A stretch of 64,000 nt of DNA from a virus (IMGVR_UViG_3300022871_000009:1-64000), one strand, 5' to 3'; shown: positions 18,597-63,402, counted from the first letter of the stretch. Notes: generated from the letters alone by a model not told the origin. Numbers and translations are program-made.

Positions 18597-19556
18597 ATGA
18601 AACTATTAGTAACTGGAGGGGCAGGCTTTATAGGGTCAAACTTTATCCATTACTGGATGGAGCGACACCCAGCCGATGAAATATTAAATGTAGATAAACT
18701 AACTTACGCTGGTAATTTAGACAATCTCAAAGGTGTAGACAAATTAGATAATTACACTTTTGTACAAATGGACATCTGTGACCCAAAAATGGAAAATTCA
18801 ATAAAATGGTGTGACATAGTAGTGCACTTCGCTGCTGAAACACACGTTGATAATTCCTTAGAGTCAGCAGATGCATTCATCAAAACCAACGTGAATGGAA
18901 CTTACAACATTCTAAAATACGTACAAAAATACGATAAAAGAATGCACCATATTTCTACGGATGAAGTGTTTGGCTCGCTGCCTCTGGGAACTGATGAGAA
19001 ATTTAGCGAAAATACTCCATACTCTCCTAGAAATCCTTACTCAGTTACAAAAGCTGCCGCTGATTACATGGTTAGATGTTTCCATGATACGTATGGAACA
19101 AAGATAACCATCAGCAACTGCTCTAACAACTACGGACCACGTCAGCATATAGAGAAAATGATTCCTAAAGCTATCACCAACATCTTACAAGGAAAGACAG
19201 TCCCAGTATATGGTACAGGAGAAAACGTAAGAGATTGGTTGCATGTTACAGAACATTGCCGTGCTGTAGAAGCAATAATTTACAGAGGTAGAATAGGAGA
19301 GACTTATTGTGTTGGTGGTATGGATGAGGGTATAAGCAATTTGCAGTTGGTAGAAACAATGGCTGATATGCTACAACTCGATTCAAAGGATTGTATAAAA
19401 TTTGTAAAAGACAGGGCGGGACATGACCTGAAATATGCTGTTAACTGGAATAAAATTAACGGAGAACTGGGCTGGTCCCCAACATTAGACTTTGAAACTA
19501 ATTTAGCAGACACTATTCAGTGGTATAGAGAAAACCGTTGGTGGTGGAATGAATAA
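18597..19556 (+). CDS. rmlB: dTDP-glucose 4,6-dehydratase
   Basis: MKLLVTGGAGFIGSNF...DKLTYAGNL...YSVTKAAAD. Typical RfbB sequence and length. Confidence 0.85.
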   Translation: MKLLVTGGAGFIGSNFIHYWMERHPADEILNVDKLTYAGNLDNLKGVDKLDNYTFVQMDICDPKMENSIKWCDIVVHFAAETHVDNSLESADAFIKTNVNGTYNILKYVQKYDKRMHHISTDEVFGSLPLGTDEKFSENTPYSPRNPYSVTKAAADYMVRCFHDTYGTKITISNCSNNYGPRQHIEKMIPKAITNILQGKTVPVYGTGENVRDWLHVTEHCRAVEAIIYRGRIGETYCVGGMDEGISNLQLVETMADMLQLDSKDCIKFVKDRAGHDLKYAVNWNKINGELGWSPTLDFETNLADTIQWYRENRWWWNE

Positions 19557-20313
19557 AATTATGTCAAAAGCAAAAATAAAACAATGTAAAGGTATAATTT
19601 TAGCAGGTGGTTACGGCACGAGACTAAAGCCAATGACCTCTGTTACAAATAAACATCTTCTACCTGTGTACAATAAGCCGATGATTTATTACCCAATAGA
19701 CACATTGGTTTCCGCAGGGATTAAAGATATCATGATTTTGACTGGTAGTGAGCATGCGGGAGACTTCATCAACTTACTTGGAGACGGTTCAGACTTCGGA
19801 GCAAGTTTTACCTACCGACCGCAACAAGGTGCTGGTGGAATTGCTCACGCATTGGGCCTGTGTCGTGATTTTGCAGGAGATAGCCCAATTGCTGTAATCC
19901 TAGGAGATAACATCTTTGAAGATAATATCAAATCTAGAGTTCTAGCATTTGAAAGTGATTACTCAAAAGCGTCAATCTTTCTTAAGAAAGTAATGGACCC
20001 AGAGAGATTCGGTGTTGCAGAAATAGAAGGAGATAGAGTCACTACTATTATAGAAAAACCCGAGAATCCTAAATCTAACTTCGCTGTCACTGGATTGTAT
20101 TTCTACAATAACGCAGTTTGGAATATTATAGATAGTCTAAGTCCATCAGAACGTGGTGAATACGAGATAACTGATGTAAATAGTTGGTACGTAAACAACG
20201 GTCTCATGAATCATGAGATACTAGAAGGATATTGGTCAGACGCTGGAACTCCAGATAGTTTGTACCGCTCTTCTAAATACGCCTACGAAAAAGAATATAA
20301 AAGTAAAGAATAA
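19549..20313 (+). CDS. rmlA: glucose-1-phosphate thymidylyltransferase (short form)
   Basis: GIILAGGYGTRLKPMTSVTNKHLLPVYNKPMIYYPI matches the canonical RmlA N-terminus. Confidence 0.85.
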   Translation: MNKIMSKAKIKQCKGIILAGGYGTRLKPMTSVTNKHLLPVYNKPMIYYPIDTLVSAGIKDIMILTGSEHAGDFINLLGDGSDFGASFTYRPQQGAGGIAHALGLCRDFAGDSPIAVILGDNIFEDNIKSRVLAFESDYSKASIFLKKVMDPERFGVAEIEGDRVTTIIEKPENPKSNFAVTGLYFYNNAVWNIIDSLSPSERGEYEITDVNSWYVNNGLMNHEILEGYWSDAGTPDSLYRSSKYAYEKEYKSKE

Positions 20314-25223: not shown

Positions 25224-25249
25224 AAGAAGAATATTATTCTTCTTTTTTT
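25224..25249. terminator. bidirectional rho-independent terminator between convergent genes
   Basis: AAGAAGAATA/TATTCTTCTT stem flanked by A-run and T-run. Overlaps the last codons (KKEE) of the minus-strand 1798-aa gene. Confidence 0.5.
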
Positions 25250-50400: not shown

Positions 50401-52412
50401 GGATTAAAGTAAAATGATAATGAATCTAATATAGTTGTACTAAATCCTGCGTGTTTATACGCATATCGTGTTACTGCATCACTAGAATAAAAATTATTTT
50501 TATTAGTTGTTAGTGCTGTTGTATAATTAGCAGGGGGTTTAAGATAATCTTTAAGTGTTGATGAAAAACCAGAATGTTTATATATTTTGTCAGACACATT
50601 ATCAGTACTATATAAATTATAATAATCTAATGTAACATCTTTTAAATTTATGCTAGGAGATGAAAAACTATTTAAAACTGTGGATGAAAAACCAGAATAA
50701 TGATATATTCTTCCACGGTCAGGTGCACAAAAAAGTGCACCGTTTATTGCTAAACCTCTCACAACACGAGTATTAGAACCAGAGAAACTATCCAGTACAG
50801 TTGTACTAAATCCAGAATGTTTGTAAATTTGGTGACTAATTCCAGTTTCTCTAGAATATAAATAATTTAAATCTTTAGTAACTCCGTTAGATGATGATTC
50901 TACAGTAGGAGGAATTATAGATTCAATAACTGTAGTAGAAAAACCACTAAACTTATAAATTAATTTATCAGAACACGCAGCAATCAAATTATCTAGAAAT
51001 AATGATGTACTTGAACTAGTGGAGCTAGACGTTGACGAACTTGTTGAACTTGTAGAAGAACTAGTAGAACTCGTAGAACTAGATGTACTAGAACTTGTTG
51101 AAGAACTAGAAGTAGATAAGCTAGTCGAACTAGAAGTGGATGAACTAGTCGAACTAGAAGTGGATGAACTAGTAGAACTAGAAGTTGAGGAACTAGTAGA
51201 ACTCGATGTTGAGGAACTAGTAGAACTTGATGTAGAACTTGATGTACTAGAAGAAGTCGAACTAGAAGTAGACGAGCTAGTAGAACTAGTAGAGCTTGAT
51301 GTTGAGGAGCTAGTAGAACTTGAAGTGCTAGAAGATGTACTAGAACTAGTAGAGCTAGAAGTTGAAGACGACGTACTCGATGTTGAAGAACTAGTAGAAC
51401 TAGATGTTGAAGAGCTAGTAGAACTTGATGTTGAAGAGCTAGTAGAACTTGATGTTGAAGAGCTAGTAGAACTTGATGTAGAAGATGATGTACTTGAAGA
51501 AGTCGAACTAGAAGTAGAAGAACTAGTTGACGATGTACTGGAAGAAGTCGAACTAGAAGTAGATGAGCTAGTTGACGATGTACTCGAAGAAGTCGAACTA
51601 GATGTACTAGAGCTAGTAGAACTAGTAGAAGAACTAGTAGATGATGAAGTAGAAGATGTGGTATATCTAGCTGCAGCATCCTGCCATGAGGCTGCTGTAG
51701 AATAGGTTGATGAGTCAAAACTATCTAAAATTGTGGATGAAAATCCTGCATGTTTATAAACATCTCCAGGTGTAAAGTCAGAACTAAAAATATTAGTTCC
51801 ATCACCAGACATATCACCAATGTTGTCACCTGGTGAAGAGAAACTATCGGTAATTGTAGTAGAGAATCCAGAATGTTTAAATAATGAATCAGGAGTATTA
51901 CCATCTGCGCTATAAAAAATTCCAGATACATATGTAAAGCCCTCTGGTCTAGTAGAAGGGCCAGTAAAACTATCTAACACCGTAGAACTGAATCCATCAT
52001 GTTTATATATTTTACTAAGAGACACATCTGTACTATAAGTATTAGTCCCATCATCTGTGACAGCATACGTTTCTGTGCCTGGAGCTGAAAAGCTGTCGCT
52101 AATTGTAGTAGAAAATCCTGAATGTTTATAGACTCTTTCCGAATTCGCATCTGCAGACAAAACACCAGTAGTTGAATATTCAACTCCAAAAGGAAAAGTA
52201 CTTGGAGTAGAAAAACTATCTATTATTGTAGAACTGAATCCAGAATACTTATAAATTTGTTGGAGTGAGTATTCAGAAGTAATTGTATTATTACTATCTC
52301 CAGCAGCTTTAGACACCTCTTCATTATCAACAAAAAGATTACCTTTAATTGCTTCAAGGTAATCTTCGTCTGATAACTCGTCTGAATTTTTATGGTCGAG
52401 GTGGTCCGTCAT
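41418..52412 (-). CDS. giant 3664-aa modular fibre protein
   Basis: About 50 copies of a 38-42-aa repeat around (I/V)YKHSGFSSTILDSF...P.G(L/V)T.DG.N.YS.D. They fall into blocks of 5,5,5,10,10,5,5,5. Each block is capped by a (L/I)TW(D/E).Y..R motif and followed by an (SSST)n tract of about 30 to over 300 residues. One continuous ORF. Confidence 0.7.
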   Translation of the reverse strand: MTDHLDHKNSDELSDEDYLEAIKGNLFVDNEEVSKAAGDSNNTITSEYSLQQIYKYSGFSSTIIDSFSTPSTFPFGVEYSTTGVLSADANSERVYKHSGFSTTISDSFSAPGTETYAVTDDGTNTYSTDVSLSKIYKHDGFSSTVLDSFTGPSTRPEGFTYVSGIFYSADGNTPDSLFKHSGFSTTITDSFSSPGDNIGDMSGDGTNIFSSDFTPGDVYKHAGFSSTILDSFDSSTYSTAASWQDAAARYTTSSTSSSTSSSTSSTSSSTSSSTSSSTSSTSSSTSSSTSSSTSSTSSSTSSSTSSSTSSSTSSSTSSSTSSSTSSSTSSSTSSSTSSSTSSSTSSTSSSTSSSTSSSTSSSTSSSTSSSTSSSTSSTSSSTSSSTSSSTSSSTSSSTSSSTSSSTSSSTSSSTSSSTSSSTSSSTSSSTSLSTSSSSTSSSTSSSTSSTSSSTSSTSSSTSSSTSSSTSLFLDNLIAACSDKLIYKFSGFSTTVIESIIPPTVESSSNGVTKDLNYLYSRETGISHQIYKHSGFSTTVLDSFSGSNTRVVRGLAINGALFCAPDRGRIYHYSGFSSTVLNSFSSPSINLKDVTLDYYNLYSTDNVSDKIYKHSGFSSTLKDYLKPPANYTTALTTNKNNFYSSDAVTRYAYKHAGFSTTILDSLSFYFNPSIYGFTWDNYNKRVSFYSTTTTSSTSSSTSSSTSSSTSSTSSSTSSTSSSTSSSTSSSTSSSTSSSTSSSTSLLDDLISIGLNTGDVHNVYKYSGFSSTVKDSFAAALYTTGVTKDKTYLYTAGDFVSTNDAVYKHSGFSTTILDSFSSPSGYLGGVTINDTALFSSDYVSDKIYQHLGFSSTIADSFSSPSSAPNGLTSNKYRLFSTDTASDKIYQHSGFTSTIQSSFASPSSMPRGLAYDGKYIYSTNALPWVSESRLDYKHSGFSSTILDSFIPSDYDFDITWGHYSSRVGTTTTTSTSSSTSSSTSSSTSSSTSSTSSSTSSSTSSSTSSSTSSSTSSTSSSTSSSTSSSTSSSTSSSTTSSTSSSTSSSTSSSTSSSTSSSTSSSTTILFDNFLSADSISGKLYRHVGFSSTISDSFSSPSPVPEGVTWDGVNAYSSDSDMDMLVTKMYKHSGFSSVILDSFSSPSIAPRGLTHDTVNIYSVDYTAGKLYQHSGFSTTISDSFNSPSNAPTGITQDGDDTYSSDYFTETVYKHSGFTSTILGSFTNLANFPSVGITLKEGDIYASGPPGKMYKHSGFTSTIVSSFSTPSTTPTGIEYESIGKRLGIENLMMTNDDTDKIYKFSGFSSTVLDSFGSPSTSPSGLSYDGFDIYSANYSTRDIYHHSGFSSTILDSFGMPKSVWGVVYGDERIYSSDYWDKIYRHSGFSSTILDSFTQFLPADITMDGANIYAQNLPDAAIFKYSGFSSTVVDSFEGATGVGITWDGKNLYNTKDYGVNKHRGFSSTIIDTIDTSAIGTDSRGITWEDYWSRTAETTSSTSSSTSSSTSSSTSSSTSSSTSSTSSSTSSSTSSSTSSSTSSSTSSSTSSSTSSSTSSTSSSTSSSTSSSTSSTSSSTSTSSTSSSTSSTSSSTSSSTSSSTSSTSSSTSSSTSSSTSSTSSSTSSSTSSTSSSTSSSTSSSTSSSTSSSTSSSTSSTSSSTSSSTSSSTTIIFDELIEIDDNAISSKVYKYSGFSSTVVDSFSTPSTAPRGVTWDSKYILSGDLAGYIYQHSGFTSTILDSFASPSADPRGLTVQKDTLYSTDGVSDQIYKHSGYSSTISDSFSSPNLNPYDLTYDATDLYSTDTGIDKVYKHSGFTSTILESFAAVGSRTGLTYTGQHFITAEQSPDEFYKHSGFTSTVLDSFTGVANQGSGIDYMDYGGRLETNNYIGIGYYWNTEVFKYSGFSSTITDSFSSPSSYGFGVTSDGEDSYTSDVGLNRIFKHSGFSSTVSDSFSSPSIKPWGLTWGDDRIYSGDIDSDVLYRHSGFSSTILNSFSTPSSGSLDITLDGKNIYSADDATEKVYKHSGFSSTVLNSMAAVTPDIAGLTFDGYHIYTTDGNSAYSYKHAGFSTTIMDSFDGTPEYLLGVEWDNIWSREISTTSSTSSSTSSSTSSSTSSSTSSSTSSSTSSSTSSSTSSSTSSSTSSSTSSSTSSTSSSTSSSTSSSTSSSTSSSTSSSTSSSTSSSTSSSTSSSTSSSTSSSTSSTSSSTSSSTSSSTSSSTSSSTSSSTSSSTSSTSSSTSSSTSSSTSSSTSSSTSSSTSSSTSSTSSSTSSSTSSSTSSSTSSSTSSSTSSSTSSSTSSSTSSSTSSSTSSSTSSSTSSSTSSSTSSSTSSSTSSSTSSTSSSTSSSTSSTSSSTSSSTSSSTSSTSSSTSSSTSSSTSSTSSSTSTSSTSSSTSSTSSSTSSSTSSSTSSTSSSTSSSTSSSTSSTSSSTSSSTSSSTSSSTSSSTSSSTSSTSSSTSSSTSSSTSSSTSSSTSSSTSSTSSSTSSSTSSSTSSTSSSTSSSTSSSTSILYDDNLIAISPSIIYKYSGFSSTILESLGGVSAIGSLGVAFNKDLYSTNYNTNLIYHFSGFSSTLLDNFAAAASETYGLEADRDRMYSTDLTTEKIYIHSGFSSTISDSFAAEAINPRDIAVNKYRLFSLIDGSDRMYRHSGFTSTISDSFAAPGTRPGGFTTDSIDFYSTIFNPRSASYRKAYKHSGFSSTILDVFRTATNNFGLAWENYVKRLAITTTSSTSSSTSSSTSSTSSSTSSSTSSTSSSTSSSTSSSTSSSTSSSTSSSTSSTSSSTSSSTTLLNDDFYSVHVYGDLFFRYSGFSSTILDSFTVPSANIPAGLSWKDKLMYSGDAGLNIIYKHSGFSTTMIDSFSSPSTRYVKLTMTEPGDLYSVDKNTAKIYKHSGFTSTILDSFGTIIPYPSGLESNLYRLYSGGATLSVEYGIYRHSGFTSTISDSFATVRSSVARDANDTYGSSVSDFVKYNRFTSTILDSFAQPTGNLGGIAWGGDARFETTSSTSSSTSSSTSSTSSSTSSSTSSSTSTTTTLYENLMGVQYSDDKIYKYSGFSSTVIDSFSSPSTSPYGLTFLGDVYSGDSSSDVIYRHSGFTSTILSSFSSPSDSPQGVTIDYTNFYSIDNGTDKIYVHNGFSSTVSDSFSSPSSSPKGFTVNVARLFSIDGGSDKVYRHSGYTSTIADTFNTPSTLPGGLTLDKNDFYSTNYSIFIPVGCNVYQHSGFSSTVKDSFIPDGNVGDLTWGNYKRRLAETTTSSTSSSTSSSTSSSTSSSTSSTSSSTSSTSSSTSSSTSSSTSSSTSSSTSSSTSSSTSSSTSSSTSSSTSSSTSSSTSSSTSSSTSSSTSSSTSSSTSSSTSSSTSSSTSSSTSSSTSSSTSSSTSSSTSSSTSSSTSSSTSSSTSSSTSSSTSSTSSSTSSSTSSSTSSTSSSTSSSTSSSTSSTSSSTSSSTSSSTSSTSSSTSLSTSSSTSSSTSSTSSSTSSSTSSSTSSSTSSSTSSSTSSSTSSSTSSSTSSSTSSSTSSSTSSSTSSSTSSSTSSSTSSSTSSSTSSSTSSSTSSSTSSSTSSSTSSSTSSSTSSTSSSTSSSTSSSTSSSTSSSTSSSTSSTSSSTSSSTSSSTSSSTSSSTSSSTSTISFYIEDMEITGGLETLGRRGGISTQGVFGGGYYGF
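41521..42660. repeat. (AGT/AGA/ACT)n low-complexity DNA encoding the C-terminal (SSST)n tract (approximate bounds)
   Basis: Imperfect triplet repeats. Produces a spurious antisense E/L/V-rich ORF at 41536..42687. Confidence 0.7.
44890..46150. repeat. (SSST)n-encoding triplet-repeat tract (approximate)
   Basis: Same repeat class. Spurious antisense ORF 44962..46245. Confidence 0.7.
47425..47950. repeat. (SSST)n-encoding triplet-repeat tract (approximate)
   Basis: Same repeat class. Spurious ORFs 47284..47970 (+) and 47405..48004 (-). Confidence 0.7.
50990..51660. repeat. (SSST)n-encoding triplet-repeat tract (approximate)
   Basis: Same repeat class. Spurious ORFs 51019..51705 and 50993..51718. 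Shorter tracts lie near 43320-43430, 44070-44260, 49225-49510 and 50190-50340. Confidence 0.7.
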
Positions 52413-53802
52413 AACTTGGACGCTGTGACGTTACCTTCAGTAGAAGGTCGTTCACGCTTTTAATGTCCAAGGTTTTCATATGTTTACAAAGTAAACCGAA
52501 ATGAGTATATAGTTTGTATCCCAATTTCTGGGCTTGTTGTGAAAATACAAAATCTTCTGAATATTCGACAGTTCCGTTAGAATGGTAGGTAAAGTAAAAT
52601 GGTCTATCCATCTTCTCTAAAACCTCTCTCTTAATCATAAACATTCCACCTGTGACTACATCAGTCTCTTCGACTCCAGAACCGTAATACGGCCTGTATT
52701 TGCCCTCTGAGTCGTATCTGTGAGCCACTGGTATAGGTGCCATAAGCCCATCATCATCAACTTTCGTCGTTAGACAGGTTGGGGCCACTACGTCCTTATC
52801 AGCTTTGATAAGTTCTCTCAGTGTCTCTAAAGGAGGAATAATATCATTATCAATCATCACAAGATAATCAAAATAATCTTCTAGAAAGCTTTTTACAATA
52901 AAGTTCCGGGCATTATCCAATGGAAACATGTGTGACGCAGGGAATATCTTAACGACAAACTCTGGGTCGTGTGTCCATTGAATCAGCCTCATGGCCAGTT
53001 CAATATGTAATTTACCATCTGCTGTAGGTAGGCCTATGAAAATCCTAGGCTTTTCGCCTAGCTCATCTTTCCACTTAGCACGGTGTTTATTATATTGGCC
53101 AACAGCATACTTCTTAGAGTAGTCGACATCGTGGTCGAACAATTCTCTAAAAGCAGCTGAACCATAATGATACATGAACGAGCTTCGCACGGCTCCAATT
53201 TTGTAACCAAGCTTTTTCACTCTAAGACATATATCATTGTCATCGCCACCACCAGTACCAAATCTCTCGTCTAAGATGTGTCCTTCTCCCAAACCGAATT
53301 CTTTATTATGAGAAACCAGTTTATCAACTACTTCTCTTGTCATTGGGACACACACACCTTTTACCTCAGGAGCCTCTTCTATGCCGCCGAGATGAGAGTA
53401 TTCAATACTTTGTTTACTATCGGCCTCGCCTATTAGCGGTGCCAATATACCGTACTCTGGATTTTTCTTAAACGCTTCAACGATTTTCTCTATCCAACCT
53501 GGAACGCAGACAACGTCTGAATTCAAAAGAACTACATATTCACTATCGGGGGATACTTTAGCAAAACCTGCATTTATGGCACCGGTGTAACCCTTAGCTT
53601 CTTCATGATAGACTGACGCTGCAAAGGTATACTTTGATAACATCTCTTTCATCTCATCATCTTTTCCGTCTTGGACAATGATGAGCTCTAAGTTTGGGGT
53701 GTAACCGAATACGCTTTCAATCGCTACTCTGGTCAAATCAGGTCTAAACCTGACTGGCATTATTATTGAAACCCTCGGAAATGAATTTAAAATTTCCTTC
53801 AT
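52390..53802 (-). CDS. tandem two-domain glycosyltransferase (two GT-A/GT2-like halves)
   Basis: N-terminal half SIIMPVRFRPDLTRVAIESV...IIVQDG (GT2). Second half IFIGLPTADGKLH...VMIDNDIIPP. Immediately upstream of the giant fibre gene, with overlapping stop and start. Confidence 0.6.
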   Translation of the reverse strand: MKEILNSFPRVSIIMPVRFRPDLTRVAIESVFGYTPNLELIIVQDGKDDEMKEMLSKYTFAASVYHEEAKGYTGAINAGFAKVSPDSEYVVLLNSDVVCVPGWIEKIVEAFKKNPEYGILAPLIGEADSKQSIEYSHLGGIEEAPEVKGVCVPMTREVVDKLVSHNKEFGLGEGHILDERFGTGGGDDNDICLRVKKLGYKIGAVRSSFMYHYGSAAFRELFDHDVDYSKKYAVGQYNKHRAKWKDELGEKPRIFIGLPTADGKLHIELAMRLIQWTHDPEFVVKIFPASHMFPLDNARNFIVKSFLEDYFDYLVMIDNDIIPPLETLRELIKADKDVVAPTCLTTKVDDDGLMAPIPVAHRYDSEGKYRPYYGSGVEETDVVTGGMFMIKREVLEKMDRPFYFTYHSNGTVEYSEDFVFSQQAQKLGYKLYTHFGLLCKHMKTLDIKSVNDLLLKVTSQRPSYDGPPRP

Positions 53803-54274
53803 ATGCTTTTATTTCATTTATTTCATATAGGACATCATCATAGATATGTGAATTAACAATGATGTCTTGATTATACTCGCCAATCTGCCGAAGAGGCTGA
53901 ATTCGTGATTGGTGAGCCACATACCAAAAACCCATATCCCTTAATATCGGATATGTGCTTGCGGTAATTTGAAACCCAGGTGCTCTAAACCCGAATTTGT
54001 TAGGTAGGAGTGACGATAGTCTGCCATAAGATTCTTTTATTAATTCTTCGCGATTATCTCGCTCACATTCAGGTGGGTCGTCGTGCAACCAACCATGAAT
54101 TCCTACCTCTACCCAGTCTTTATTTTTAACTAGCCAGTTCTCAATCAATGAGTCCACTTCTCCAGCTATAGGAAAGACTGTAACTTTAAAATCTGGACGA
54201 ACTATTTTAAACTCCTCCAGTTTGTACAAATTACTAATGTATCTCTTTGATATATCATCAACAGTGAAATACAT
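53744..54274 (-). CDS. hypothetical protein (possible carbohydrate deacetylase-like)
   Basis: 176-aa ORF. Weak by-eye resemblance only (GIHGWLHDD). Confidence 0.3.
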   Translation of the reverse strand: MYFTVDDISKRYISNLYKLEEFKIVRPDFKVTVFPIAGEVDSLIENWLVKNKDWVEVGIHGWLHDDPPECERDNREELIKESYGRLSSLLPNKFGFRAPGFQITASTYPILRDMGFWYVAHQSRIQPLRQIGEYNQDIIVNSHIYDDVLYEINEIKAYEGNFKFISEGFNNNASQV

Positions 54275-55113: not shown

Positions 55114-55145
55114 ATTATAGCATAAGTCCTTATCTTCTCGTCTAC
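55114..55145 (-). promoter_or_regulatory. promoter-like site with the AGGACTTATGCTATAAT element
   Basis: Reverse complement ...gagaagatAAGGACTTATGCTATAAT. -35 is weak. Confidence 0.4.
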
Positions 55146-55537
55146 ATTTTTTCCCTAAGCATGGTAGAAGATATGTCTTTTGTGTAAGGGAGGTAAATTA
55201 CAGGCGGGCCCAAGCCTTCACCAGTGTAGTTACCCTTCCAGTCATCTCCGACAAATAACACGTCTGCATCGTATTTATCAATAGCATCTGTCTTGCTGAA
55301 GTCGCGAGACTGGATATCTATTCCATCTATAACATTTATAGTCTCTAGGTGTGCTCGTCTAGTATGAAAATCTAACGGAGGCTCATATCCTTTGTGAGCA
55401 CGAATGTACTCATCGCTAGACATACAAACAATCAACTTCTCACAATACCTCTTTGCTTCTATGAATAGGTTGATATGTCCGTAGTGTAGCGGAGAGAAAG
55501 CTCCGAAAGTTAGTCCAACTTTATATTTTGCATGCAT
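55142..55537 (-). CDS. cytidylyltransferase-family nucleotidyltransferase (glycerol-3-phosphate/choline-phosphate cytidylyltransferase-like)
   Basis: GAFSPLHYGH (HxGH motif). Fits the short approximately 130-aa CTP_transf_like proteins. Probable start at MHAKYKVG; the track ORF extends to 55594. Confidence 0.6.
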   Translation of the reverse strand: MHAKYKVGLTFGAFSPLHYGHINLFIEAKRYCEKLIVCMSSDEYIRAHKGYEPPLDFHTRRAHLETINVIDGIDIQSRDFSKTDAIDKYDADVLFVGDDWKGNYTGEGLGPPVIYLPYTKDISSTMLREKM

Positions 55538-56924
55538 AATATTGACTTGTACAAGCCCTGCGAGACCAGGCCATAGGCCCATAAATAGGCTCACTCCACG
55601 TTTTTCCGTAGTTAGACTCTAGATATTCGTCCACAGGGTTAGGAATTAAGTACCCTTTTCCATCATATTTTATCATTTTTGCATTTTCGAACCACTCTTT
55701 TGGATGTTTTGCACAGAACTTCTGCCGCTTTCTACCCTTGAGAATGTTCATTGTGGCGTCATCTTCATCATAATAGATGGGGTCTAGGTCATTTCTTACC
55801 CCATATTTCTTGAAACTTAGAGTCCTAACGTAGGTTTCTGGGCTTTCATACCCATCTTTTTTCTTTACTCTAGGTATATCCTTTTTTATCTTTATATCAG
55901 TAAAGCCAGCTTTTGCGAACACATTCACATCAATTTTGTGCGTATCTCTAGCATCTATGATGAAATCATTATCCCAGTCATATTTCAGAATGTCTCCGTC
56001 TCTCACTATGCCTAGGCATGTCCCGAAAGCTAAAAAGTGTTTTACCCCCATTTTGTCTAGCAAATCGCTAGTTTCCCTGAGTGCTTTCTTGGCATTCTCA
56101 CGACCAACAGGCACACGCTTGTCTCCTCCACGAAGGTAGTCCTCTACAGTCATATCAGGCTCGCGCCTGAACGTGTCTCTTACTTCTTGTGGGTGCATCT
56201 CAGTAACTGGCTTAGGTAGACGCCAAAGAGCCTCGGAGTTGCGTGAGTTTCCCTTCCAATGGTCATTTCGCCAGTTTCGTTTTTCTATAGTAAGACTACA
56301 CAAATGTGTCAATGTTCTTGTGTCACCCATTCTGTCCTGTTTTGTAAGAGGATGGTAATTGCAAGCAGTTCTATAAGGAATAGCAGTTAACTCAGTAAAA
56401 AACTTAAAAATACGGGTATGCCCTGTCATGCTTTTATTGTGGATTGTCATCATATCACCGAAGACATCTACAGGTTTCATTGTTAAAGCTTTTTTTGTCT
56501 TATCAGCCCAAAACTTCTCAAGTAACTCAGGTAAGTGGTCATTAAATATCTCGTCAGAATCAGGCCAAATCAACATATCTACTTTCTCTCCACCTTTTTC
56601 AACGTCCCTCATATACTGGAATACTGTCTCTCTTATTGGCCCCTGCAGGGGTTTAAACCTGTGGAAAAGACCTCTGCGTGAAGATTCCTGCTCTGGAGTT
56701 GCTCTGGGCAACCCCGAATGAGCTATTCTGATTCTATCTGGATATCTGTCCTTATATTCCTGAACAATCTTCATTGTAGTTTCGTCTTCGTTATCTATCA
56801 TAAGCAATACCCAATCACACCATTTTAATAAGTTCGGGATTGAGTGATGTAAAATACCACCACATCTAGCGACAAGGGTAGCTCCCACGATATTTATATC
56901 TTGTAAAAAATCTCTATGCTTCAT
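55521..56924 (-). CDS. fusion protein: GT-A-like glycosyltransferase N-terminal domain plus LicD-family phosphotransferase C-terminal domain
   Basis: C-terminal FLAFGTCLGIVRDGDILKYDWDNDFII matches the LicD nucleotidyltransferase-fold motif (GTxLGxxRxxxxIPWDDDxD). The N-terminal region resembles a GT2 fold. Confidence 0.55.
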   Translation of the reverse strand: MKHRDFLQDINIVGATLVARCGGILHHSIPNLLKWCDWVLLMIDNEDETTMKIVQEYKDRYPDRIRIAHSGLPRATPEQESSRRGLFHRFKPLQGPIRETVFQYMRDVEKGGEKVDMLIWPDSDEIFNDHLPELLEKFWADKTKKALTMKPVDVFGDMMTIHNKSMTGHTRIFKFFTELTAIPYRTACNYHPLTKQDRMGDTRTLTHLCSLTIEKRNWRNDHWKGNSRNSEALWRLPKPVTEMHPQEVRDTFRREPDMTVEDYLRGGDKRVPVGRENAKKALRETSDLLDKMGVKHFLAFGTCLGIVRDGDILKYDWDNDFIIDARDTHKIDVNVFAKAGFTDIKIKKDIPRVKKKDGYESPETYVRTLSFKKYGVRNDLDPIYYDEDDATMNILKGRKRQKFCAKHPKEWFENAKMIKYDGKGYLIPNPVDEYLESNYGKTWSEPIYGPMAWSRRACTSQYYACKI

Positions 56925-57481
56925 GTTATTGTTTTTAATTTAGTCTCGTGATGACATTCCATACATAATGTTTTTCCGTTGTTTAGATTCCATAATTCAT
57001 TACACTGCAAAGCATCTTCAATTGAGTTAATATTGTTATCTATTATAATATCTATAAACCTTTTGATATGATGTGCTTCCAAATTACCTCCATGTTTTTC
57101 ACACTCAACACATGTGTAATTATCTCTCCTAAATACCTTATTTCTCCACTCAAAATATTTTGGGATATTTCTTATAGCTTTAGTCAACTTAGTTTTTCCT
57201 CCTCTCCAATTTGGGTGTTTTTCTCTAGCATGCTGCCCCTTTTTAAAATGAGTTCTGCCAGTATTTAATTGAGCATGCCCTCTCTGGAATCCCTCAACTT
57301 TCTTGTGTTTTCTTTTACTATTAGCTGAACCTATTCTTTCTTTATGTATTTTAGATAATTTTCTATTTCTGATACTCCTGTAAAAACAATTGCGACTACA
57401 ATACTTAGCTTGCTTTCTAGAAGATGGATAAAAACTAAATTTTTTACCGCATATCCTACATTTTACCTGTTCTTTTTTCAT
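56921..57481 (-). CDS. free-standing HNH endonuclease with zinc fingers
   Basis: CVECEKHGGNLEAHHIKRF...NLNNGKTLCMECHHETK HNH signature plus N-terminal CxxC pairs. Confidence 0.6.
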   Translation of the reverse strand: MKKEQVKCRICGKKFSFYPSSRKQAKYCSRNCFYRSIRNRKLSKIHKERIGSANSKRKHKKVEGFQRGHAQLNTGRTHFKKGQHAREKHPNWRGGKTKLTKAIRNIPKYFEWRNKVFRRDNYTCVECEKHGGNLEAHHIKRFIDIIIDNNINSIEDALQCNELWNLNNGKTLCMECHHETKLKTIT

Positions 57482-57489
57482 GCAAATTA

Positions 57490-58686
57490 CTAATATCGTT
57501 TATGATGGAAAATAAAAGTAGGTTTATTAGTACAAATAAAATTTTCTGTTCCCTCCCCATCGAAAATCTTGTGCATGAAATCGAAGTCGTACGTGACTTG
57601 TCTAGTATCCTGAAAATATCCATATTTAATGAAGTGGTCTTTTCTGTACAACAAACAACCTAAATCTATTCCCTGTCTACCGAAATGAGTTTGTTTTATC
57701 CGATTGTAAGTAGACTCTGGCTTCTTACCAATCAGTCTCATCCAGCAATAAGGAATTTTACCAGTAGTCATTTCAGCTTCTACCATTGATTGTAAATGCT
57801 CTGGAGTCCATTCGTTATCATCATCTAAGAAAACAATACGGTCATATTTAGCTATCATCGCACCAATATTTCTGGAGTATAGGCCAAATCTACCACGTGT
57901 TTCTTCTACGTCTACAAAAGATACGTCTATTCCTTGTTCAAGAAGATAATCCTTACCTAACCGATACCATTCGCGTATTTCTTTTTGTCCATCATTTACA
58001 ATTATCCATTCAAAATCTTCAAATGATTGTCTCATAATAGAAGCTACAACCGCCCCCATGTTTTCAGCCCTAAAAGCGGCTGTGACGATAGATACTTTTA
58101 TGTTTTGCTTGATAGGTACGAACTTGAGCATAGACTGTCTAAAACAGCCGTTTTTGCCCACCAGGGTGACGTTCCAGCCAGTTGCTAGCTCTTTTATCTC
58201 GTCTATTATATAACTGAATCTTTTTGTCTCGCTATCTTCAGTAGGGTTGTTTTTTGAATCACCCATAGAGATAGAAGCATAAAACTTCCCATCAGCATTC
58301 ATTACAGGAAGGAGATTATCCAAACACTCCTTAATTTTATCTTTTACTAAGTGTGTGAATACAGACTTTGCAATTACGTAATCAAATTTTCTTTCTTTAA
58401 ATGAAGAAAAATCGAAGTTATCTGTATGAACTAGGTTAGGTCTGTTTCTACGCTGGTTTTTATCCATTTCCTTCTCTACACCAGCATCAAGTAGCCACTG
58501 GTGCTTTTCAACACCGTGATAGTTCCCTGGGTCAAGATAATCTATAAAGTGAACTCCCGCCCTTAGAGACCCGCAACCGATATCCAAAAACTTATGATAA
58601 GGTTGCAAACCTTCCTCCTTGAGAAAATCTATTTGTTTCTTGCCAGCTTCCTCCCAGTTGCCGCCAACGTATTTTCTGTGGTCCAT
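57490..58686 (-). CDS. bifunctional class I SAM methyltransferase (N-terminal) / GT2 glycosyltransferase (C-terminal)
   Basis: FLDIGCGSLRAG matches SAM motif I. C-terminal VSIVTAAFRAENMGAVVASIMRQSFEDFEWIIVNDG matches the GT2 start. Confidence 0.6.
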   Translation of the reverse strand: MDHRKYVGGNWEEAGKKQIDFLKEEGLQPYHKFLDIGCGSLRAGVHFIDYLDPGNYHGVEKHQWLLDAGVEKEMDKNQRRNRPNLVHTDNFDFSSFKERKFDYVIAKSVFTHLVKDKIKECLDNLLPVMNADGKFYASISMGDSKNNPTEDSETKRFSYIIDEIKELATGWNVTLVGKNGCFRQSMLKFVPIKQNIKVSIVTAAFRAENMGAVVASIMRQSFEDFEWIIVNDGQKEIREWYRLGKDYLLEQGIDVSFVDVEETRGRFGLYSRNIGAMIAKYDRIVFLDDDNEWTPEHLQSMVEAEMTTGKIPYCWMRLIGKKPESTYNRIKQTHFGRQGIDLGCLLYRKDHFIKYGYFQDTRQVTYDFDFMHKIFDGEGTENFICTNKPTFIFHHKRY

Positions 58687-58687
58687 A

Positions 58688-59278
58688 TTATTTTCCTTCA
58701 GCTATACCTTCATGGCCATAACGGATTAGGTCATCTTTGTAGTATGGCTTATGAATTTTATAAATTATTCCTAGACCTGATTTTGATAGTGGCAAAGCAG
58801 ACTTTGGATAGTCAACTTCATCCCAAAAGAATCGTACTACGCCTTTATGAGGCCAAAGTACATCATGCATGAGGATTATTCCACCTTCCTTCACAAAAGG
58901 CTCAAAACGTTCATAATCGGCCTTCACGCCTTCGTAAGAGTGGTCTCCATCTATAAGTAGTACATCTATTTCCTTGTCCCATGGCAGAGTTTTAGAATCT
59001 CCTTGCATAAACTCCCAATGCTTCTTTAGCTCTGGGTCTTTCACAACTCCAGTACAATCCTCGATATCCATGCTATACAACTTAAGATTCTTATGTCCTC
59101 TGTCGTGTATACCATGTAGGAAGGCCAATGTGCTTGTACCCCATCTTGTTCCAATTTCTAAAATTGTACGCGCACCTTTTTTATAGTCAGTAGCGACTGA
59201 GTAAAGTAGTGGTACGAATCCTCCCATATTAGCTCCCTTACGTTTTACGTCGTTTAACTCTTGTGGGTAGTTTTCCAT
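58688..59278 (-). CDS. class I SAM-dependent methyltransferase (O-methyltransferase/Methyltransf_24-like)
   Basis: ILEIGTRWGTSTLAF...LIDGDHSYEGVKAD pattern. Confidence 0.55.
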   Translation of the reverse strand: MENYPQELNDVKRKGANMGGFVPLLYSVATDYKKGARTILEIGTRWGTSTLAFLHGIHDRGHKNLKLYSMDIEDCTGVVKDPELKKHWEFMQGDSKTLPWDKEIDVLLIDGDHSYEGVKADYERFEPFVKEGGIILMHDVLWPHKGVVRFFWDEVDYPKSALPLSKSGLGIIYKIHKPYYKDDLIRYGHEGIAEGK

Positions 59279-59289
59279 ATTTTATCTTT

Positions 59290-60030
59290 TTATTTAAAAA
59301 TTCTCTCACCATCCAATGGCTTATTAGTCATTAAATCTATTTGTGGGTATGGTTTTTCTTCCAATGCTTGACCACGTCTCCATGTCCCAGTTCCATGTTT
59401 TTCTGTCTTTATTTTATATCCCTTATCTTTACCATAGCCTAAATGGTTACACCACAAATCTGATGCCCATCCAGCTTCTTTCCCAATTTTGCGTATTAAA
59501 GATGTGAAACCAAACTCTTCATAGTGCTTCTTGCCAAAACCACCAGCTTCCAGTATGTCATCTAATCTCTGGATTCTGAAATAACTAGCTAATCCTTTTC
59601 TAGCTGGTGTTATATCAGAATCGAGCCAATTCATATTAGGTATTCTTTGTATTCTACAACTTATACCACCATATTCTGGATATTTTTTCATTAAAAAAAT
59701 CAACTGGTCAACAACATCTGGTTTTAAAGATGGGATGATAATATCGTCAAAGGTCGTTATGAAATATTCAGATTTTACATATTTTAAACCCTCATCCCAT
59801 GCGACAGAGATGCCTCTGTACCCTTTCCCATTATTATTTAGTAGAGTACTTACAACTTTTTTTTCAACCATCTCTTCCAAAAATTCAAATGTTCCATCAC
59901 TTGATAAATCGTCAGTTACTATAAGGTTAACTCTACTAAAAGGTATAATTCTTTTTGTTAGTTCTTCTATACATTTTTTTGTAAACTCCAACCTATTACA
60001 CGTCATTAATATAATATCTATTTTATTCAT
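59290..60030 (-). CDS. family 2 glycosyltransferase
   Basis: IDIILMTCNRLEFTKKCIE...IVTDDLSSDGT. Confidence 0.65.
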   Translation of the reverse strand: MNKIDIILMTCNRLEFTKKCIEELTKRIIPFSRVNLIVTDDLSSDGTFEFLEEMVEKKVVSTLLNNNGKGYRGISVAWDEGLKYVKSEYFITTFDDIIIPSLKPDVVDQLIFLMKKYPEYGGISCRIQRIPNMNWLDSDITPARKGLASYFRIQRLDDILEAGGFGKKHYEEFGFTSLIRKIGKEAGWASDLWCNHLGYGKDKGYKIKTEKHGTGTWRRGQALEEKPYPQIDLMTNKPLDGERIFK

Positions 60031-60034
60031 ATAA

Positions 60035-61348
60035 TTATCTTTTTTTAGCTACGATTAAAGCGACAAATTTACTAGGATTATTTTTCTCAACGTGGCAAGA
60101 ACGTATAACTCTCATGCCGAGCAGTCTCCTAAGCATTAGGTTAAGTGTATTCAGCCCAAGGTTAGCCTTGTGCCCGTTGTATATTATGTACTTGGGTTTT
60201 ATTTCTCCATCAGGGACTGCGATAGCTAGTACCCCCCCTGGTTTTAAAACTCTTTTCCATTCTGCTATTGCAGCCACAGTATCTGGTAAATGTTCCAACA
60301 AATGTGAACTAACAATGAAATCAAGTTCGTTATCTTTAAACATCCACAAATCTGTACAATCTCCTACAATATCTACGTTATCATGAGGATATACATCCAT
60401 ACCCATGGCATTTTCGTGGCATTTCATAAAACCACAGCCTAAGTCCAACCCTTTCCCTGTTTCACAGTATTTTGATAGTTCAATCTGCTCGGCAATCAAT
60501 CTTTTTCTAGCATTACCAGCTCTATCATCTCTGCCCCAATAATCGTAATATGCTTGCCTCCTCTTATGTTCCTCACTGTCTCTTACTGTGTTTATTTTAA
60601 GAGGAATATTAGTCCTCTTGTCTATTTCTGGATATGGTTGCTCTTTGTTTTGAAATACACGTTCTTCAGCATAAGTATGATAATCAGTAAACCCAGTTTT
60701 GAACCCCTTATTATCTACAAAACCGATATGAGACGCATAGACCTTAGTAGCCATTCCAACTTTTTTTCCAGTCTTCTTAACTTTATCTGAAAAAGTATGA
60801 GACTCCCAATGAGGTCTATTTGAAAAACCGATATGTTCCAGCATGTCTCTACCAGTTATTCTAAAAACAGCAGGACATGCTGTGTCAGAAGGAATTATTT
60901 TAGAAAATTCATCGATATCTCTCCTTCTTGTTCTTTCTATTCTCATAGAGACAGCGCCATAATCTACGTTATCCTCCAATAGATGAATCATTCCTTCCAG
61001 CCAACATGGTCTCAAATCTGGCGGCAACAAATCATCTTGAGTTTGAACTACCAGGTCGCTTATTTTCCCTTTTAACTTACTATTAGCATAATTATATAAA
61101 AATTTGTAACCTGCAGCTTGGCCACCATTATCCTCTGCAACAACAAAATCATACACATACCCCCAACTTTTAGCCTGTTTTAGATATCTTGTAGTGTCAT
61201 TATCATTTTTATTATTATTGACAATCCACAATCTAAACGGATAACGTGTTCTTTCGTATATATGTTTTACTGTTCTTTTAAGTAAATGAAGTCTGTTATA
61301 TGTTACCAAAAAAATATCTACAAAGTCTTTGTTTTCTATTTTTTCCAT
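60035..61348 (-). CDS. bifunctional GT2 glycosyltransferase (N-terminal) / class I SAM methyltransferase (C-terminal)
   Basis: N-terminal VDIFLVTYNRLHLLKRTV matches GT2. C-terminal GLDLGCGFMKCHENAMGMDV...LKPGGVLAIAVP matches SAM MTase motifs I and post-I. Confidence 0.6.
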   Translation of the reverse strand: MEKIENKDFVDIFLVTYNRLHLLKRTVKHIYERTRYPFRLWIVNNNKNDNDTTRYLKQAKSWGYVYDFVVAEDNGGQAAGYKFLYNYANSKLKGKISDLVVQTQDDLLPPDLRPCWLEGMIHLLEDNVDYGAVSMRIERTRRRDIDEFSKIIPSDTACPAVFRITGRDMLEHIGFSNRPHWESHTFSDKVKKTGKKVGMATKVYASHIGFVDNKGFKTGFTDYHTYAEERVFQNKEQPYPEIDKRTNIPLKINTVRDSEEHKRRQAYYDYWGRDDRAGNARKRLIAEQIELSKYCETGKGLDLGCGFMKCHENAMGMDVYPHDNVDIVGDCTDLWMFKDNELDFIVSSHLLEHLPDTVAAIAEWKRVLKPGGVLAIAVPDGEIKPKYIIYNGHKANLGLNTLNLMLRRLLGMRVIRSCHVEKNNPSKFVALIVAKKR

Positions 61349-61349
61349 A

Positions 61350-61976
61350 TTATAATATTTTATCTTTTTTTCTGTAATTATCTAACGCTTCTAAAGGTCT
61401 CAAATTATCTAGAGACCAACAGGACTCAAACTCATCATCATCTACTGAGGAATAATTAAATTTAGAGTCAGGAATTATGTGGTCAATATTCCACTCCCCC
61501 CTATTAAATCCATAATTATCCCAAGACATCCATGATTCAAATTTTGATTCTAAATTTTTAATAAGGTCATCTATGGTATAAGGCAGAATATCAAAAGTAG
61601 GCACCCCTTTTTTAGACAATAATCTTTTTTTAAGTCTATTTCTAACCAACCAAGATACCGTATATCTAAGCTTAAAATGTGGATTATTCTTATTTCTATG
61701 ATAATATCTTCTCCTACTCTCTTTTATTCCTCCCTTGTAATTCATCTTGTCCCTACAAACTAATGAACAATAATTATGTTTATTCTCTCTCAACTTAGAT
61801 GGTATACGTAACAATTCTTCGCCGCAGGAATCACATTGAACCTTTTGCACTTTAACCTGTGCTCTATGCTTGCATTTCCTTGAACAATATTTTCTTTTTT
61901 TTAATAATGACCTTTGAACATAAAAACTTTTTCCACAAAAAATACAGACCTTATTTGCTCCAGCACGATTATTCAT
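61350..61976 (-). CDS. free-standing HNH-like endonuclease with zinc fingers
   Basis: CIFCGKSF...CSRKC...CDSCGEE...CSLVC zinc knuckles. NIDHIIPDSKF HNH-like core. Confidence 0.5.
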   Translation of the reverse strand: MNNRAGANKVCIFCGKSFYVQRSLLKKRKYCSRKCKHRAQVKVQKVQCDSCGEELLRIPSKLRENKHNYCSLVCRDKMNYKGGIKESRRRYYHRNKNNPHFKLRYTVSWLVRNRLKKRLLSKKGVPTFDILPYTIDDLIKNLESKFESWMSWDNYGFNRGEWNIDHIIPDSKFNYSSVDDDEFESCWSLDNLRPLEALDNYRKKDKIL

Positions 61977-63402
61977 AGAGCACAGGTGCTAACATTTTAT
62001 GATATATAGCATCGAAACTGTGGGTGCTCCAAACCTTTCTGAATTGTTTGTCAGGTTTATTTGATTCTAACTGTCCGATAATAATCTTAGCCAATCTATC
62101 GAAGGCCTGAGGGTCTCGCTCTGCGTAGTGCATGCTCTTCAAAGAAGTGAAAGGGTGCTTGAGCACAGCATTAGTATCTACGAAATCAAACAAACAAGGT
62201 AAATCTTCGTTAATAACTAGTAAGTTTTTAGCCATAGAAGCTTCCAGCAATACATTGCTACACACCTCCGCTATGGTAGGGAATACAAACAAGTTAGATA
62301 TTTGCATTAATTGTGCTACGACTTTATTTGGAACCTCAGTAAGAGTATCGTAGCCGTCATCACTGAGCAAGCTAGTAAACACAAAATCAGTCTCATCAAG
62401 ACCGTGCACTTCTCTAGCAAATTTTAATTTATCTTCAATTTCGTCTACTCTTCGTCTGCCGTTTGAATTGCAGACAATTAGAGCGACATTCTTGCCCTGT
62501 CTCTTAAGAGCTCCGAATGTAGCTATTACAGAATTTAGACCTTTGGCATCCATTCTTGTGGTACAGATAGGATATGTCTGGATGACATCTTTCTCCCACA
62601 ATCTCATCTTGTCGCTGACCATCCTAGTCGTAGGATGCCAATCAAACATTAGTGATGGGTCTTTCTCGTTAAAAATCACACGCACATCGCTATCTCTTAC
62701 TCCGATGTTTCTAGCAAAACCACCAACATCTGCATAGTTCATATAGACATACTTTGTGTTGTCCATTCTGAAATCAATCGGTCTGCCCACTCCAGAACGG
62801 GCCCAGTGTAGCCATTTAATAGGAACTCCACATTCTCTTATAGCTTCTCGGTATGTTATACAATCGTCTATATAAAAATCATGAGTTATAGCGATATCGA
62901 AATCATTTGTAAGCGCACTCCTGAGCATATCAATCATCCTAGTCTTTGCATCCTCATCAACTATACCCTTCTCACGCTTGAATTTAGGTACCACAGGGCG
63001 CATTTCACACCCAATGTCTAATGTACTGCCTTCTTGTGTAAAAAAAACAACCTCGTGCCCATAATGCTGTAACATCTTGATTTGATTCTTTACAGCACGC
63101 CCAGGAGAATAGCTATCAGGGCATCTGTTAAAATGCGTAATTATAGCTATCTTCAGAGGTTTCTCATTTTCAAGAGCCTCAGGCGCTTTAGTTATTGGCA
63201 CAGGTTGTTCTGGTTTTATTCCAAGTGACCTGACAGCATGGTCTAGTGAAGGGATTATATCGTCTCTAGGGAATTCTTCTTGTACTGCATAGTGAGCCAA
63301 GTTATTCTCCTCTTTACTAGGGTCTTTGATTGTAGCAGTTATAAAATAACTGCCAGAGTTCTTTGCTGCCTGGATTATACTGTCTATGTTGCTATTATTC
63401 AT
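61969..63402 (-). CDS. hypothetical protein, possible glycosyltransferase (GT-B-like)
   Basis: 477-aa ORF at the end of the GT island. No firm motif. Confidence 0.3.
   Translation of the reverse strand: MNNSNIDSIIQAAKNSGSYFITATIKDPSKEENNLAHYAVQEEFPRDDIIPSLDHAVRSLGIKPEQPVPITKAPEALENEKPLKIAIITHFNRCPDSYSPGRAVKNQIKMLQHYGHEVVFFTQEGSTLDIGCEMRPVVPKFKREKGIVDEDAKTRMIDMLRSALTNDFDIAITHDFYIDDCITYREAIRECGVPIKWLHWARSGVGRPIDFRMDNTKYVYMNYADVGGFARNIGVRDSDVRVIFNEKDPSLMFDWHPTTRMVSDKMRLWEKDVIQTYPICTTRMDAKGLNSVIATFGALKRQGKNVALIVCNSNGRRRVDEIEDKLKFAREVHGLDETDFVFTSLLSDDGYDTLTEVPNKVVAQLMQISNLFVFPTIAEVCSNVLLEASMAKNLLVINEDLPCLFDFVDTNAVLKHPFTSLKSMHYAERDPQAFDRLAKIIIGQLESNKPDKQFRKVWSTHSFDAIYHKMLAPVLYE

Follow-up and report, generated by a model that had tools for sequence, protein, structure and literature searches.

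Two glycosyltransferase-methyltransferase fusions of opposite domain order in a putative virion glycosylation island of an uncultured phage

What are two proteins that join a glycosyltransferase to a methyltransferase, in opposite orders, doing in the genome of a virus, and on what do they act? The question is raised by a 64,000 nucleotide (nt) stretch of DNA, IMGVR_UViG_3300022871_000009:1-64000 (the whole stretch is hereafter called the window), where both fusions are encoded between positions 57,490 and 61,348. The window belongs to an uncultured tailed phage and carries genes for a primase/helicase, an O-like initiator, SbcCD, an SU10-type adaptor, and LysM and M23 lytic proteins. To our knowledge, glycosylation of phage virions has been demonstrated only in mycobacteriophages, and elsewhere in the viral world, glycan machinery encoded by the virus itself is known mostly from giant viruses. 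The locus examined here probably directs the cytoplasmic O-glycosylation of Ser/Thr tracts in virion proteins with methylated 6-deoxyhexose glycans, and the two fusions are predicted to be active bifunctional enzymes of that pathway, a prediction that we hold with the same moderate confidence as the reading as a whole.

Domain structure of the two fusions

The two fusions combine a family 2 glycosyltransferase (GT2) with a methyltransferase (MT) dependent on S-adenosylmethionine (SAM). They and the two genes that separate them are as follows (aa, amino acids).

60035-61348, minus strand: GT2-MT fusion, 437 aa; GT2 (aa ~1-260) followed by a class I SAM methyltransferase (aa ~262-437)
59290-60030, minus strand: stand-alone GT2, 246 aa; Pfam E 5e-10
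58688-59278, minus strand: stand-alone SAM methyltransferase (Methyltransf_24), 196 aa; Pfam E 3e-19
57490-58686, minus strand: MT-GT2 fusion, 398 aa; class I SAM methyltransferase (aa ~1-190) followed by GT2 (aa ~193-398)

These opposite orders had been proposed in a first-pass annotation of the DNA, with Pfam as the suggested check, and the Pfam results agree: judged against the curated cut-offs, each protein holds two domain types rather than one, and both domains of both fusions exceed their cut-offs. In GT2-MT, Glycos_transf_2 matches aa 12-137 (E 1e-7, 32 bits, cut-off 23.3) and Methyltransf_11/23 match aa 299-383 (E 9e-13, 49 bits, cut-off 21.2). The corresponding matches in MT-GT2 are Methyltransf_12/25/11 at aa 34-135 (Methyltransf_12 E 2e-10, 41.5 bits, cut-off 30) and Glycos_transf_2 at aa 200-317 (E 3e-12, 47 bits, cut-off 23.3). 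The same annotation had placed another GT2 and a stand-alone O-methyltransferase-like gene between the fusions. The GT2 is there, and so is a methyltransferase gene, but its likeness to O-methyltransferases is weak, the matches to O-methyltransferase and rhamnosyl-O-methyltransferase/CmcI (RMNT_CmcI) families falling below cut-off and those to O-methyltransferases in the PDB also being weak.

The characteristic motifs are conserved in both fusions. The 38 aligned sequences of GT2-MT all have D105 of the DXD motif and G305 of the SAM motif, and all have D317 as well; D104 (DXD) and G303 and C304 (SAM) are each conserved in 90% or more of them. Among nine homologues of MT-GT2, the invariant residues include C37/G38 (SAM motif), N230/D231, and D287/D288/D289 (DXD). 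Full-length homologues with the domains fused were recovered for GT2-MT (about 50, metagenomic, 40-58% identity) and for MT-GT2 (8, 54-70% identity), and in an independent assembly (L019, JGI 3300005935), with 17 nt differences from the window in 8.6 kb of the island, both fusions are again single open reading frames (ORFs). By these sequence criteria, both are genuine genes rather than chance ORFs.

AlphaFold2 gave confident two-domain models for GT2-MT (predicted local distance difference test score, pLDDT, 93; predicted template modelling score, pTM, 0.90) and for MT-GT2 (pLDDT 87, pTM 0.85). When these were compared with the PDB by Foldseek, the GT domain of GT2-MT fell among GT2 enzymes of the GT-A fold, such as WrtF, TarP, RmlT, SpsA and 5hea, an enzyme of the serine-rich repeat protein (SRRP) pathway, and the folds closest to its methyltransferase domain were the sugar O-methyltransferases AtmM and RebM. 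The GT domain of MT-GT2 is close to SpsA, RmlT and 6p61, and its methyltransferase domain is closest to MtfA, TylM1, TehB and phosphoethanolamine methyltransferases. None of the PDB fold matches is a solved structure spanning both domains of either fusion. In a search of predicted viral structures, proteins matching both domains were also found in other uncultured phages and in giant viruses.

Origin of the opposite domain orders

That the fusions are permuted copies of one another was rejected, as BLASTP showed no significant similarity between GT2-MT and MT-GT2. The GT2 half of GT2-MT does have a paralogue in the island, the stand-alone GT2, with which it shares 29% identity over 243 aa (E 1e-23). 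For what follows, the halves are called GT2a and MTa (in GT2-MT) and MTb and GT2b (in MT-GT2), and related loci are the 18 that carry a homologue of GT2-MT, which represent 13 distinct lineages.

MTb and GT2b are fused in the window and in L001-L003. They are separate neighbouring genes, in unchanged order, in L005 and L006, and are split in L009 with one GT gene inserted between them. In L008, L010, L013, L014, L016 and L017 the cognate methyltransferase is absent and the GT2b-type GT adjoins a Methyltransf_24 gene instead; the latter gene is kept in relatives and often lies next to a GT of this type. Across the loci compared, a GT2b-type GT therefore always has a methyltransferase neighbour, whether fused, split or of the Methyltransf_24 kind. 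A stand-alone homologue of MTa occurs in L017. When 1.84 billion cluster representatives were scanned by HMMER with MT-GT2, only one 50%-identity cluster covered both halves. The other top matches listed cover a single half and are mostly stand-alone methyltransferases of ~200-240 aa; some of the rest are longer proteins that end in the methyltransferase, and a few are GT2 alone.

Since relatives keep the same domains as adjoining genes in the same order, the two architectures are independent, lineage-specific fusions of neighbouring genes. The opposite orders, on this gene-by-gene comparison, mirror only the order of the neighbours that fused, GT2a beside MTa and MTb beside GT2b, and the theme that recurs across loci, as far as their gene content tells, is a GT coupled to a methyltransferase. 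The closeness of MTa to AtmM and RebM, together with the constant pairing of GT2b with a methyltransferase, suggests indirectly that each methyltransferase domain may act on the sugar of its own fused GT domain.

The island and its candidate acceptors

The fusions are part of an island of ~11 kb on the minus strand, within the structural operon of the phage. The minus strand carries every gene from position 63980 down to 25234, neighbouring genes being spaced by -74 to +70 nt; a peptidoglycan-binding gene lies on one side of the island and, on the other, a giant Ser/Thr-rich ORF and the SU10-type adaptor gene. The remaining island genes are listed below in order of transcription. The four genes given above (GT2-MT, GT2, Methyltransf_24, MT-GT2) come between the two HNH genes, and two small ORFs come between the cytidylyltransferase and the deacetylase-like gene.

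61969-63402, minus strand: GT-B (GT4-like) glycosyltransferase, 477 aa; first gene of the island
61350-61976, minus strand: HNH homing endonuclease, between the GT4-like and GT2-MT genes; PHROG 1271 and 1035 (HNH endonuclease / endonuclease VII)
56921-57481, minus strand: second HNH homing endonuclease; PHROG 8446, 589 and others
55521-56924, minus strand: GT-A-like N-terminal domain (weak evidence) fused to a LicD-type phosphotransferase; Pfam LicD at aa 382-440
55142-55594, minus strand: cytidylyltransferase (TagD-like); Pfam CTP_transf_like E 8e-15
53744-54274, minus strand: polysaccharide deacetylase-like protein; Pfam Polysacc_deac_1 E 7e-5, 23.3 bits against a cut-off of 23.1
52390-53802, minus strand: double GT-A glycosyltransferase (GT2 and GT2/Anp1-like); Pfam GT2 E 2e-25, Anp1 E 8e-7

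The GT4-like enzyme is a candidate for the initiating protein O-glycosyltransferase. It has weak Pfam matches to Glycos_transf_1 and Glyco_trans_1_4 and matches PHROG 2170 (glycosyltransferase, E 4e-8); of its 11 orthologues, 10 match Glycos_transf_1 (best E 6e-9) and 5 match Glyco_transf_4. No PDB sequence match was found for it, and a family profile search of the PDB gave nothing useful. Its gene is immediately upstream of GT2-MT in most related loci. The LicD fusion resembles Mf1 cholinephosphotransferases (NCBIfam, E 3e-14), and in L001 its GT-A-like and LicD halves are separate genes. The best match of the cytidylyltransferase is glycerol-3-phosphate cytidylyltransferase (TIGR01518, 79 bits, under the cut-off of 165). 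The GT-A-like/LicD fusion and the double GT2 are two further bifunctional enzymes of the island.

A set of glycosyltransferases and methyltransferases could also serve to hypermodify the bases of phage DNA with methylated glycans, and a preprint (bioRxiv 10.1101/2023.12.21.572611) describes phage GTs that place diverse glycans on DNA containing 5-hydroxymethylcytosine. Such a role is highly improbable here, as no hydroxymethylase, TET/5mYOX or DNA-methyltransferase-type domain was found in the annotated ORFs of the window, the methyltransferase domains are of small-molecule class I types, LicD, the deacetylase and the cytidylyltransferase would have no obvious role, and the island is in the structural operon, not in the replication module.

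The neighbouring ORF offers a different acceptor.

41418-52412, minus strand: giant mucin-like ORF, 3,664 aa, 55% Ser+Thr

Its start is overlapped by 23 nt by the double GT2 gene. The predicted protein contains eight pure (SSST)n tracts of 33-414 aa, 1,438 aa in total or about 304 SSST units, which alternate with ten units of ~215 aa. Each unit consists of about five blade-like repeats (consensus YKHSGFSSTIxDSFSSPS...G.T.D....YS.D), and the units are 34-50% identical among themselves. There was no significant Pfam, PHROG or PDB sequence match to the giant ORF or its propeller-like unit. The unit has 128 metagenomic homologues, mostly single-unit proteins, one with an NHL match in Pfam and one labelled by JGI as a YncE-like propeller. 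Neither a hydrophobic signal nor an anchor segment was found in the giant ORF.

The possibility that so repetitive an ORF is an artefact of assembly or of low complexity was rejected. All six Ser codons are used in the tracts, from both the TCN and AGY families (TCT 390, AGT 288, TCA 204, AGC 86, and others), only 2 of the 1,438 residues are not Ser or Thr, and the ORF is intact in L019 (3,662 aa), with identical tract lengths. The mixture of TCN and AGY codons therefore indicates selection on the peptide, not on a DNA repeat. An N4-like virion RNA polymerase, a candidate raised by the size of the protein, was likewise rejected because of the Ser/Thr tracts, the propeller-like repeats and the lack of a PHROG or Pfam match. 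Plus-strand ORFs at 41536-42687, 44962-46245, 47284-47970 and 51019-51705 are shadow ORFs of the tracts, and in the JGI gene calls for the near-identical L019 contig the giant gene is fragmented, with spurious genes on the opposite strand within the tracts. We propose that the giant protein is an O-glycosylation substrate and a virion fibre.

Comparison of the related loci supports a link between the island and Ser/Thr tracts. In 10 of the 13 lineages, same-strand ORFs with pure Ser/Thr tracts of 70-410 aa were found within ~10 kb; the other three are represented by short contigs. As a rough control, 120 viral loci were picked only for 16 consecutive Ser/Thr (WCN) codons; just 5 of them had a pure Ser/Thr stretch of 70 aa or more in an ORF, and none had homologues of the cluster enzymes. 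The tracts of relatives are joined to varied globular domains. The commonest such protein has a conserved domain of ~200 aa (FLYDPYIYG...GDSRVWGLYSRAYGNRNAAYFFISGTNFY...RIDRVEFWI) and, at the C-terminus, a tail of pure Ser/Thr that finishes with LLG or LIG. Its gene comes two or three genes behind that of the SU10-type capsid protein, and a role in head decoration is probable; the member that was scanned against Pfam, from L006, gave no match. It occurs at the following positions.

L004, 8738-9940: ~200-aa domain and Ser/Thr tail
L005, 4837-6009: ~200-aa domain and Ser/Thr tail
L006, 5806-6981: ~200-aa domain and Ser/Thr tail
L009, 5404-6537: ~200-aa domain and Ser/Thr tail
L012, 3473-4369: ~200-aa domain and Ser/Thr tail
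L014, 5617-6534: ~200-aa domain and Ser/Thr tail

The position of this protein raises the alternative that the main target is another virion component, either the capsid protein or a Ser/Thr-tailed capsid-decoration protein encoded beyond the window, the tracts of the giant protein being bare flexible linkers. Among the loci compared, the propeller-containing giant is restricted to this phage and L019, and mycobacteriophages modify their capsid and tail-tube proteins (PMC11600133). We nevertheless regard this alternative as improbable, since the tracts of the giant ORF are of the same kind, so that an enzyme recognising tracts would act there too, the double GT2 gene overlaps the giant ORF, and 1,438 bare residues of poly-Ser/Thr would be unusual, judged by Ser/Thr linkers and serine-rich repeat proteins in general.

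The main rival is that the island remodels a polymer of the host envelope (teichoic acid, capsule or lipopolysaccharide), for example to block superinfection or change the surface, and that the Ser/Thr-rich ORF is unrelated. TarP and RmlT, which appear among the fold matches, are enzymes of wall teichoic acid, a TagD-like cytidylyltransferase with LicD makes a pair of the teichoic-acid type, and phage GT2s in PHROG are mostly labelled as moron or O-antigen-conversion genes. Pfam scans of the cluster region, however, found no flippase, ABC transporter, polymerase, ligase or initiating phosphoglycosyltransferase; no membrane segments were found in the island enzymes, and between 63980 and 25234 no ORF has a 19-residue hydropathy window above 1.6. 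Furthermore, the island forms part of the structural operon, its translation is coupled to that of the giant ORF, in relatives it directly follows the capsid gene, and proteins with Ser/Thr tracts accompany it across the family. Remodelling of the host envelope is thus unlikely.

Genes that could supply a donor sugar for O-glycosylation of the tracts are found ~35 kb away from the island.

17761-18591, plus strand: RmlD-like reductase; Pfam match, NCBIfam 80 bits, below the cut-off of 224
18597-19556, plus strand: RmlB; TIGR01181 421 bits, above the equivalog cut-off of 365
19549-20313, plus strand: RmlA-like; TIGR01207 250 bits, below the equivalog cut-off, clearly in the family

With these three genes, all of which match Pfam families, the phage would therefore supply its own deoxythymidine diphosphate (dTDP)-6-deoxyhexose. 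The pathway may then be pictured as follows. RmlA, RmlB and the RmlD-like reductase would make a rhamnose-like dTDP-6-deoxyhexose, and the TagD-like enzyme a cytidine diphosphate (CDP)-alcohol. Expression of the late operon would bring the soluble transferases together with virion proteins bearing long Ser/Thr tracts, here the 3,664-aa (SSST)n protein. Glycosylation of Ser/Thr hydroxyls probably starts with the GT4-like enzyme, after which the GT2 domains would lengthen the glycan. Each fused methyltransferase domain may methylate the sugar handled by its own GT domain, or the nucleotide-sugar donor, so that fusion would couple transfer to capping, as in the Clostridioides difficile flagellin GT2, WsaE and A064R enzymes discussed below. 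Further decoration might come from the stand-alone methyltransferase, as another methyl group, and from LicD, as a phospho-alcohol, and N-acetyl groups might be trimmed by the deacetylase, the product being a mucin-like fibre or coat bearing methyl-sugars. In this scheme we infer the acceptor, the identities of the sugars, the methylation sites and the location in the virion. The first-pass annotation had foreseen methylated sugars on a fibre. The AtmM/RebM fold, the Rml genes, the soluble enzymes, the adjoining Ser/Thr-rich ORF and the co-occurrence of tracts all agree with this, although the chemistry is conjectural; the fibre in question would be a mucin-like chain of propeller-like units.

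Several points weigh against this scheme. Soluble phage GT2s can act on cell-wall polymers, as the fold matches to TarP and RmlT recall. The only pointer to the giant protein being in the virion is the position of its gene, which has the GT island on one side and the SU10-type adaptor gene on the other. A scan of ORFs of the window, which represents part of the phage genome, gave no RmlC, and the sugar may for this reason not be L-rhamnose. In the models, the methyltransferase domain of MT-GT2 is as close to N-methyltransferases (MtfA and TylM1, the latter an amino-sugar N,N-dimethyltransferase) as to O-methyltransferases, and it may consequently methylate O or N. Finally, the control for the co-occurrence of tracts and island is rough, the loci being phylogenetically non-independent and the control set non-random.

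A wider proposal can be put forward tentatively. In an uncultured family of ~100-kb phages with SU10-type capsid genes, pure Ser/Thr tracts may act as portable 'glyco-tags' on virion proteins, to be coated by a fast-evolving cytoplasmic glycosylation and methylation island. The extreme case would be the present phage, with a phage-made mucin of 3,664 residues that carries ten lectin-like propellers on about 304 SSST repeats, decorated with glycans of methylated 6-deoxyhexose and phospho-alcohol.

Comparison with known systems and other features

Fusions of a GT to a methyltransferase are already known as a kind, and by analogy the closest functional counterpart is the type B flagellin GT2 of C. 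difficile (CDR20291_0242). It contains PF00535 and PF08241 and was proposed to add and methylate rhamnose after a separate GT has added the first sugar (PMC5207246). The shared features are the same Pfam pair, a single soluble polypeptide, cytoplasmic Ser/Thr O-glycosylation, and a gene located beside that of the substrate (PMC5207246). The C. difficile system differs in being bacterial and in having a flagellin substrate with few sites, not a kilobase-scale (SSST)n one; the phage island, for its part, has two fusions in opposite orders, with LicD, a cytidylyltransferase and a deacetylase.

Two further enzymes combine these activities. A064R of chlorovirus PBCV-1 (GT-GT-MT) adds two rhamnoses and 2-O-methylates the terminal one, after which A061L adds a second methyl group (PMC9614988). 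Like the phage fusions, A064R is virus-encoded, soluble and multi-domain, and the glycan ends up on a virion protein; with the stand-alone A061L, the layout resembles the GT2-MT, GT2, MT, MT-GT2 set. The differences are that PBCV-1 is a eukaryotic giant virus, the glycans are N-linked to a capsid protein, and only one domain order is present. A064R was not among the top 50 PDB fold matches of either fusion, so that the resemblance is taken to be functional, not ancestral. WsaE of Geobacillus stearothermophilus carries a GT and a methyltransferase on one protein, and the terminal rhamnose of a protein-linked glycan is the target of its methyltransferase domain (PMC3898925). There, however, the substrate is a lipid-linked polyrhamnan, which an ABC transporter exports before the oligosaccharyltransferase WsaB attaches it, and the island has no such membrane machinery.

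Virion proteins of mycobacteriophage Che8 and of the cluster O phages are modified through tandem GT genes accompanied by one for an O-methyltransferase (Freeman et al. 2023, as described in PMC11600133). These are actinobacterial siphoviruses with three GTs and a separate methyltransferase, and the targets are capsid and tail-tube proteins, not giant Ser/Thr-repeat proteins. The likeness to mycobacterial and giant-virus systems suggested by the first-pass annotation accordingly holds for function and does not extend to shared ancestry.

The serine-rich repeat adhesins of Gram-positive bacteria (GtfA/GtfB) resemble the phage system in their very long Ser-rich repeats and in cytoplasmic O-glycosylation by a GT4-type initiator followed by GT-A enzymes, and the GT2-type domain of the SRRP-pathway enzyme (PDB 5hea) is among both the sequence and the fold matches. 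Of the SRRP hallmarks, none (a DUF1975/GtfA signature, an accessory Sec system, a signal peptide or an LPXTG anchor) was seen in the window. The phage system also differs in its SSST repeat, in having propeller-like globular parts and in being viral.

What is new is the combination of a large soluble island, its own donor synthesis, a giant (SSST)n mucin-like protein with propeller units, and Ser/Thr tracts throughout the lineage. No description of this combination was found in the literature, nor anything directly relevant on mucin-like or Ser-rich glycosylated proteins of phages. The interest of the finding thus lies in the context of the fusions and not in their domain order. If the proposed reading is correct, tailed phages can encode a whole soluble pathway (donor synthesis, transfer, methylation and phospho-alcohol decoration) and a dedicated mucin-like substrate as well, and Ser/Thr tracts mark the substrates throughout a phage lineage. 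It would also provide enzymes with which the synthesis of methylated O-glycans on simple repeat peptides could be tested directly, and a sequence rule for recognising glycosylated phages in metagenomes, namely a GT/MT island accompanied by 70 aa or more of Ser/Thr tract. Adhesion, resistance to proteases and immunity, and environmental persistence could all be influenced by such coats.

The phage itself has no close cultured relative in the sets searched: neither fusion nor the adaptor protein had a tblastn match among 50,697 cultured-phage records, the primase/helicase gave only distant partial matches to cultured phages (at most 31% identity), and no relative emerged from the GTDB genome representatives. 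The structural operon ends with two minus-strand ORFs, 25234-30630 (1,798 aa) and 30635-32986 (783 aa), without significant PHROG or Pfam matches; beside them are genes for an M23 peptidase and for a 737-aa protein that has LysM domains and matches endolysin families.

The region of the island appears to be a hotspot for selfish elements. The HNH gene at 61350-61976 is not at that position in most relatives. Among the relatives, inteins or LAGLIDADG elements occur in a DegT aminotransferase, a portal gene and a GT2 (P0131) (L001 14508-16766; L004 1416-4469).

Tracts of at least 70 aa of pure Ser/Thr were also seen in unrelated IMG/VR loci (L023, L042, L067, L105 and L106), and the same scan returned giant-virus contigs. 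Outside the island, the window encodes the following further proteins.

1587-2108, minus strand: Fic-like protein
2093-2995, minus strand: sugar epimerase/dehydratase of the short-chain dehydrogenase/reductase (SDR) type
9251-10099, plus strand: additional GT2
14929-16278, plus strand: SPFH/Band-7 protein

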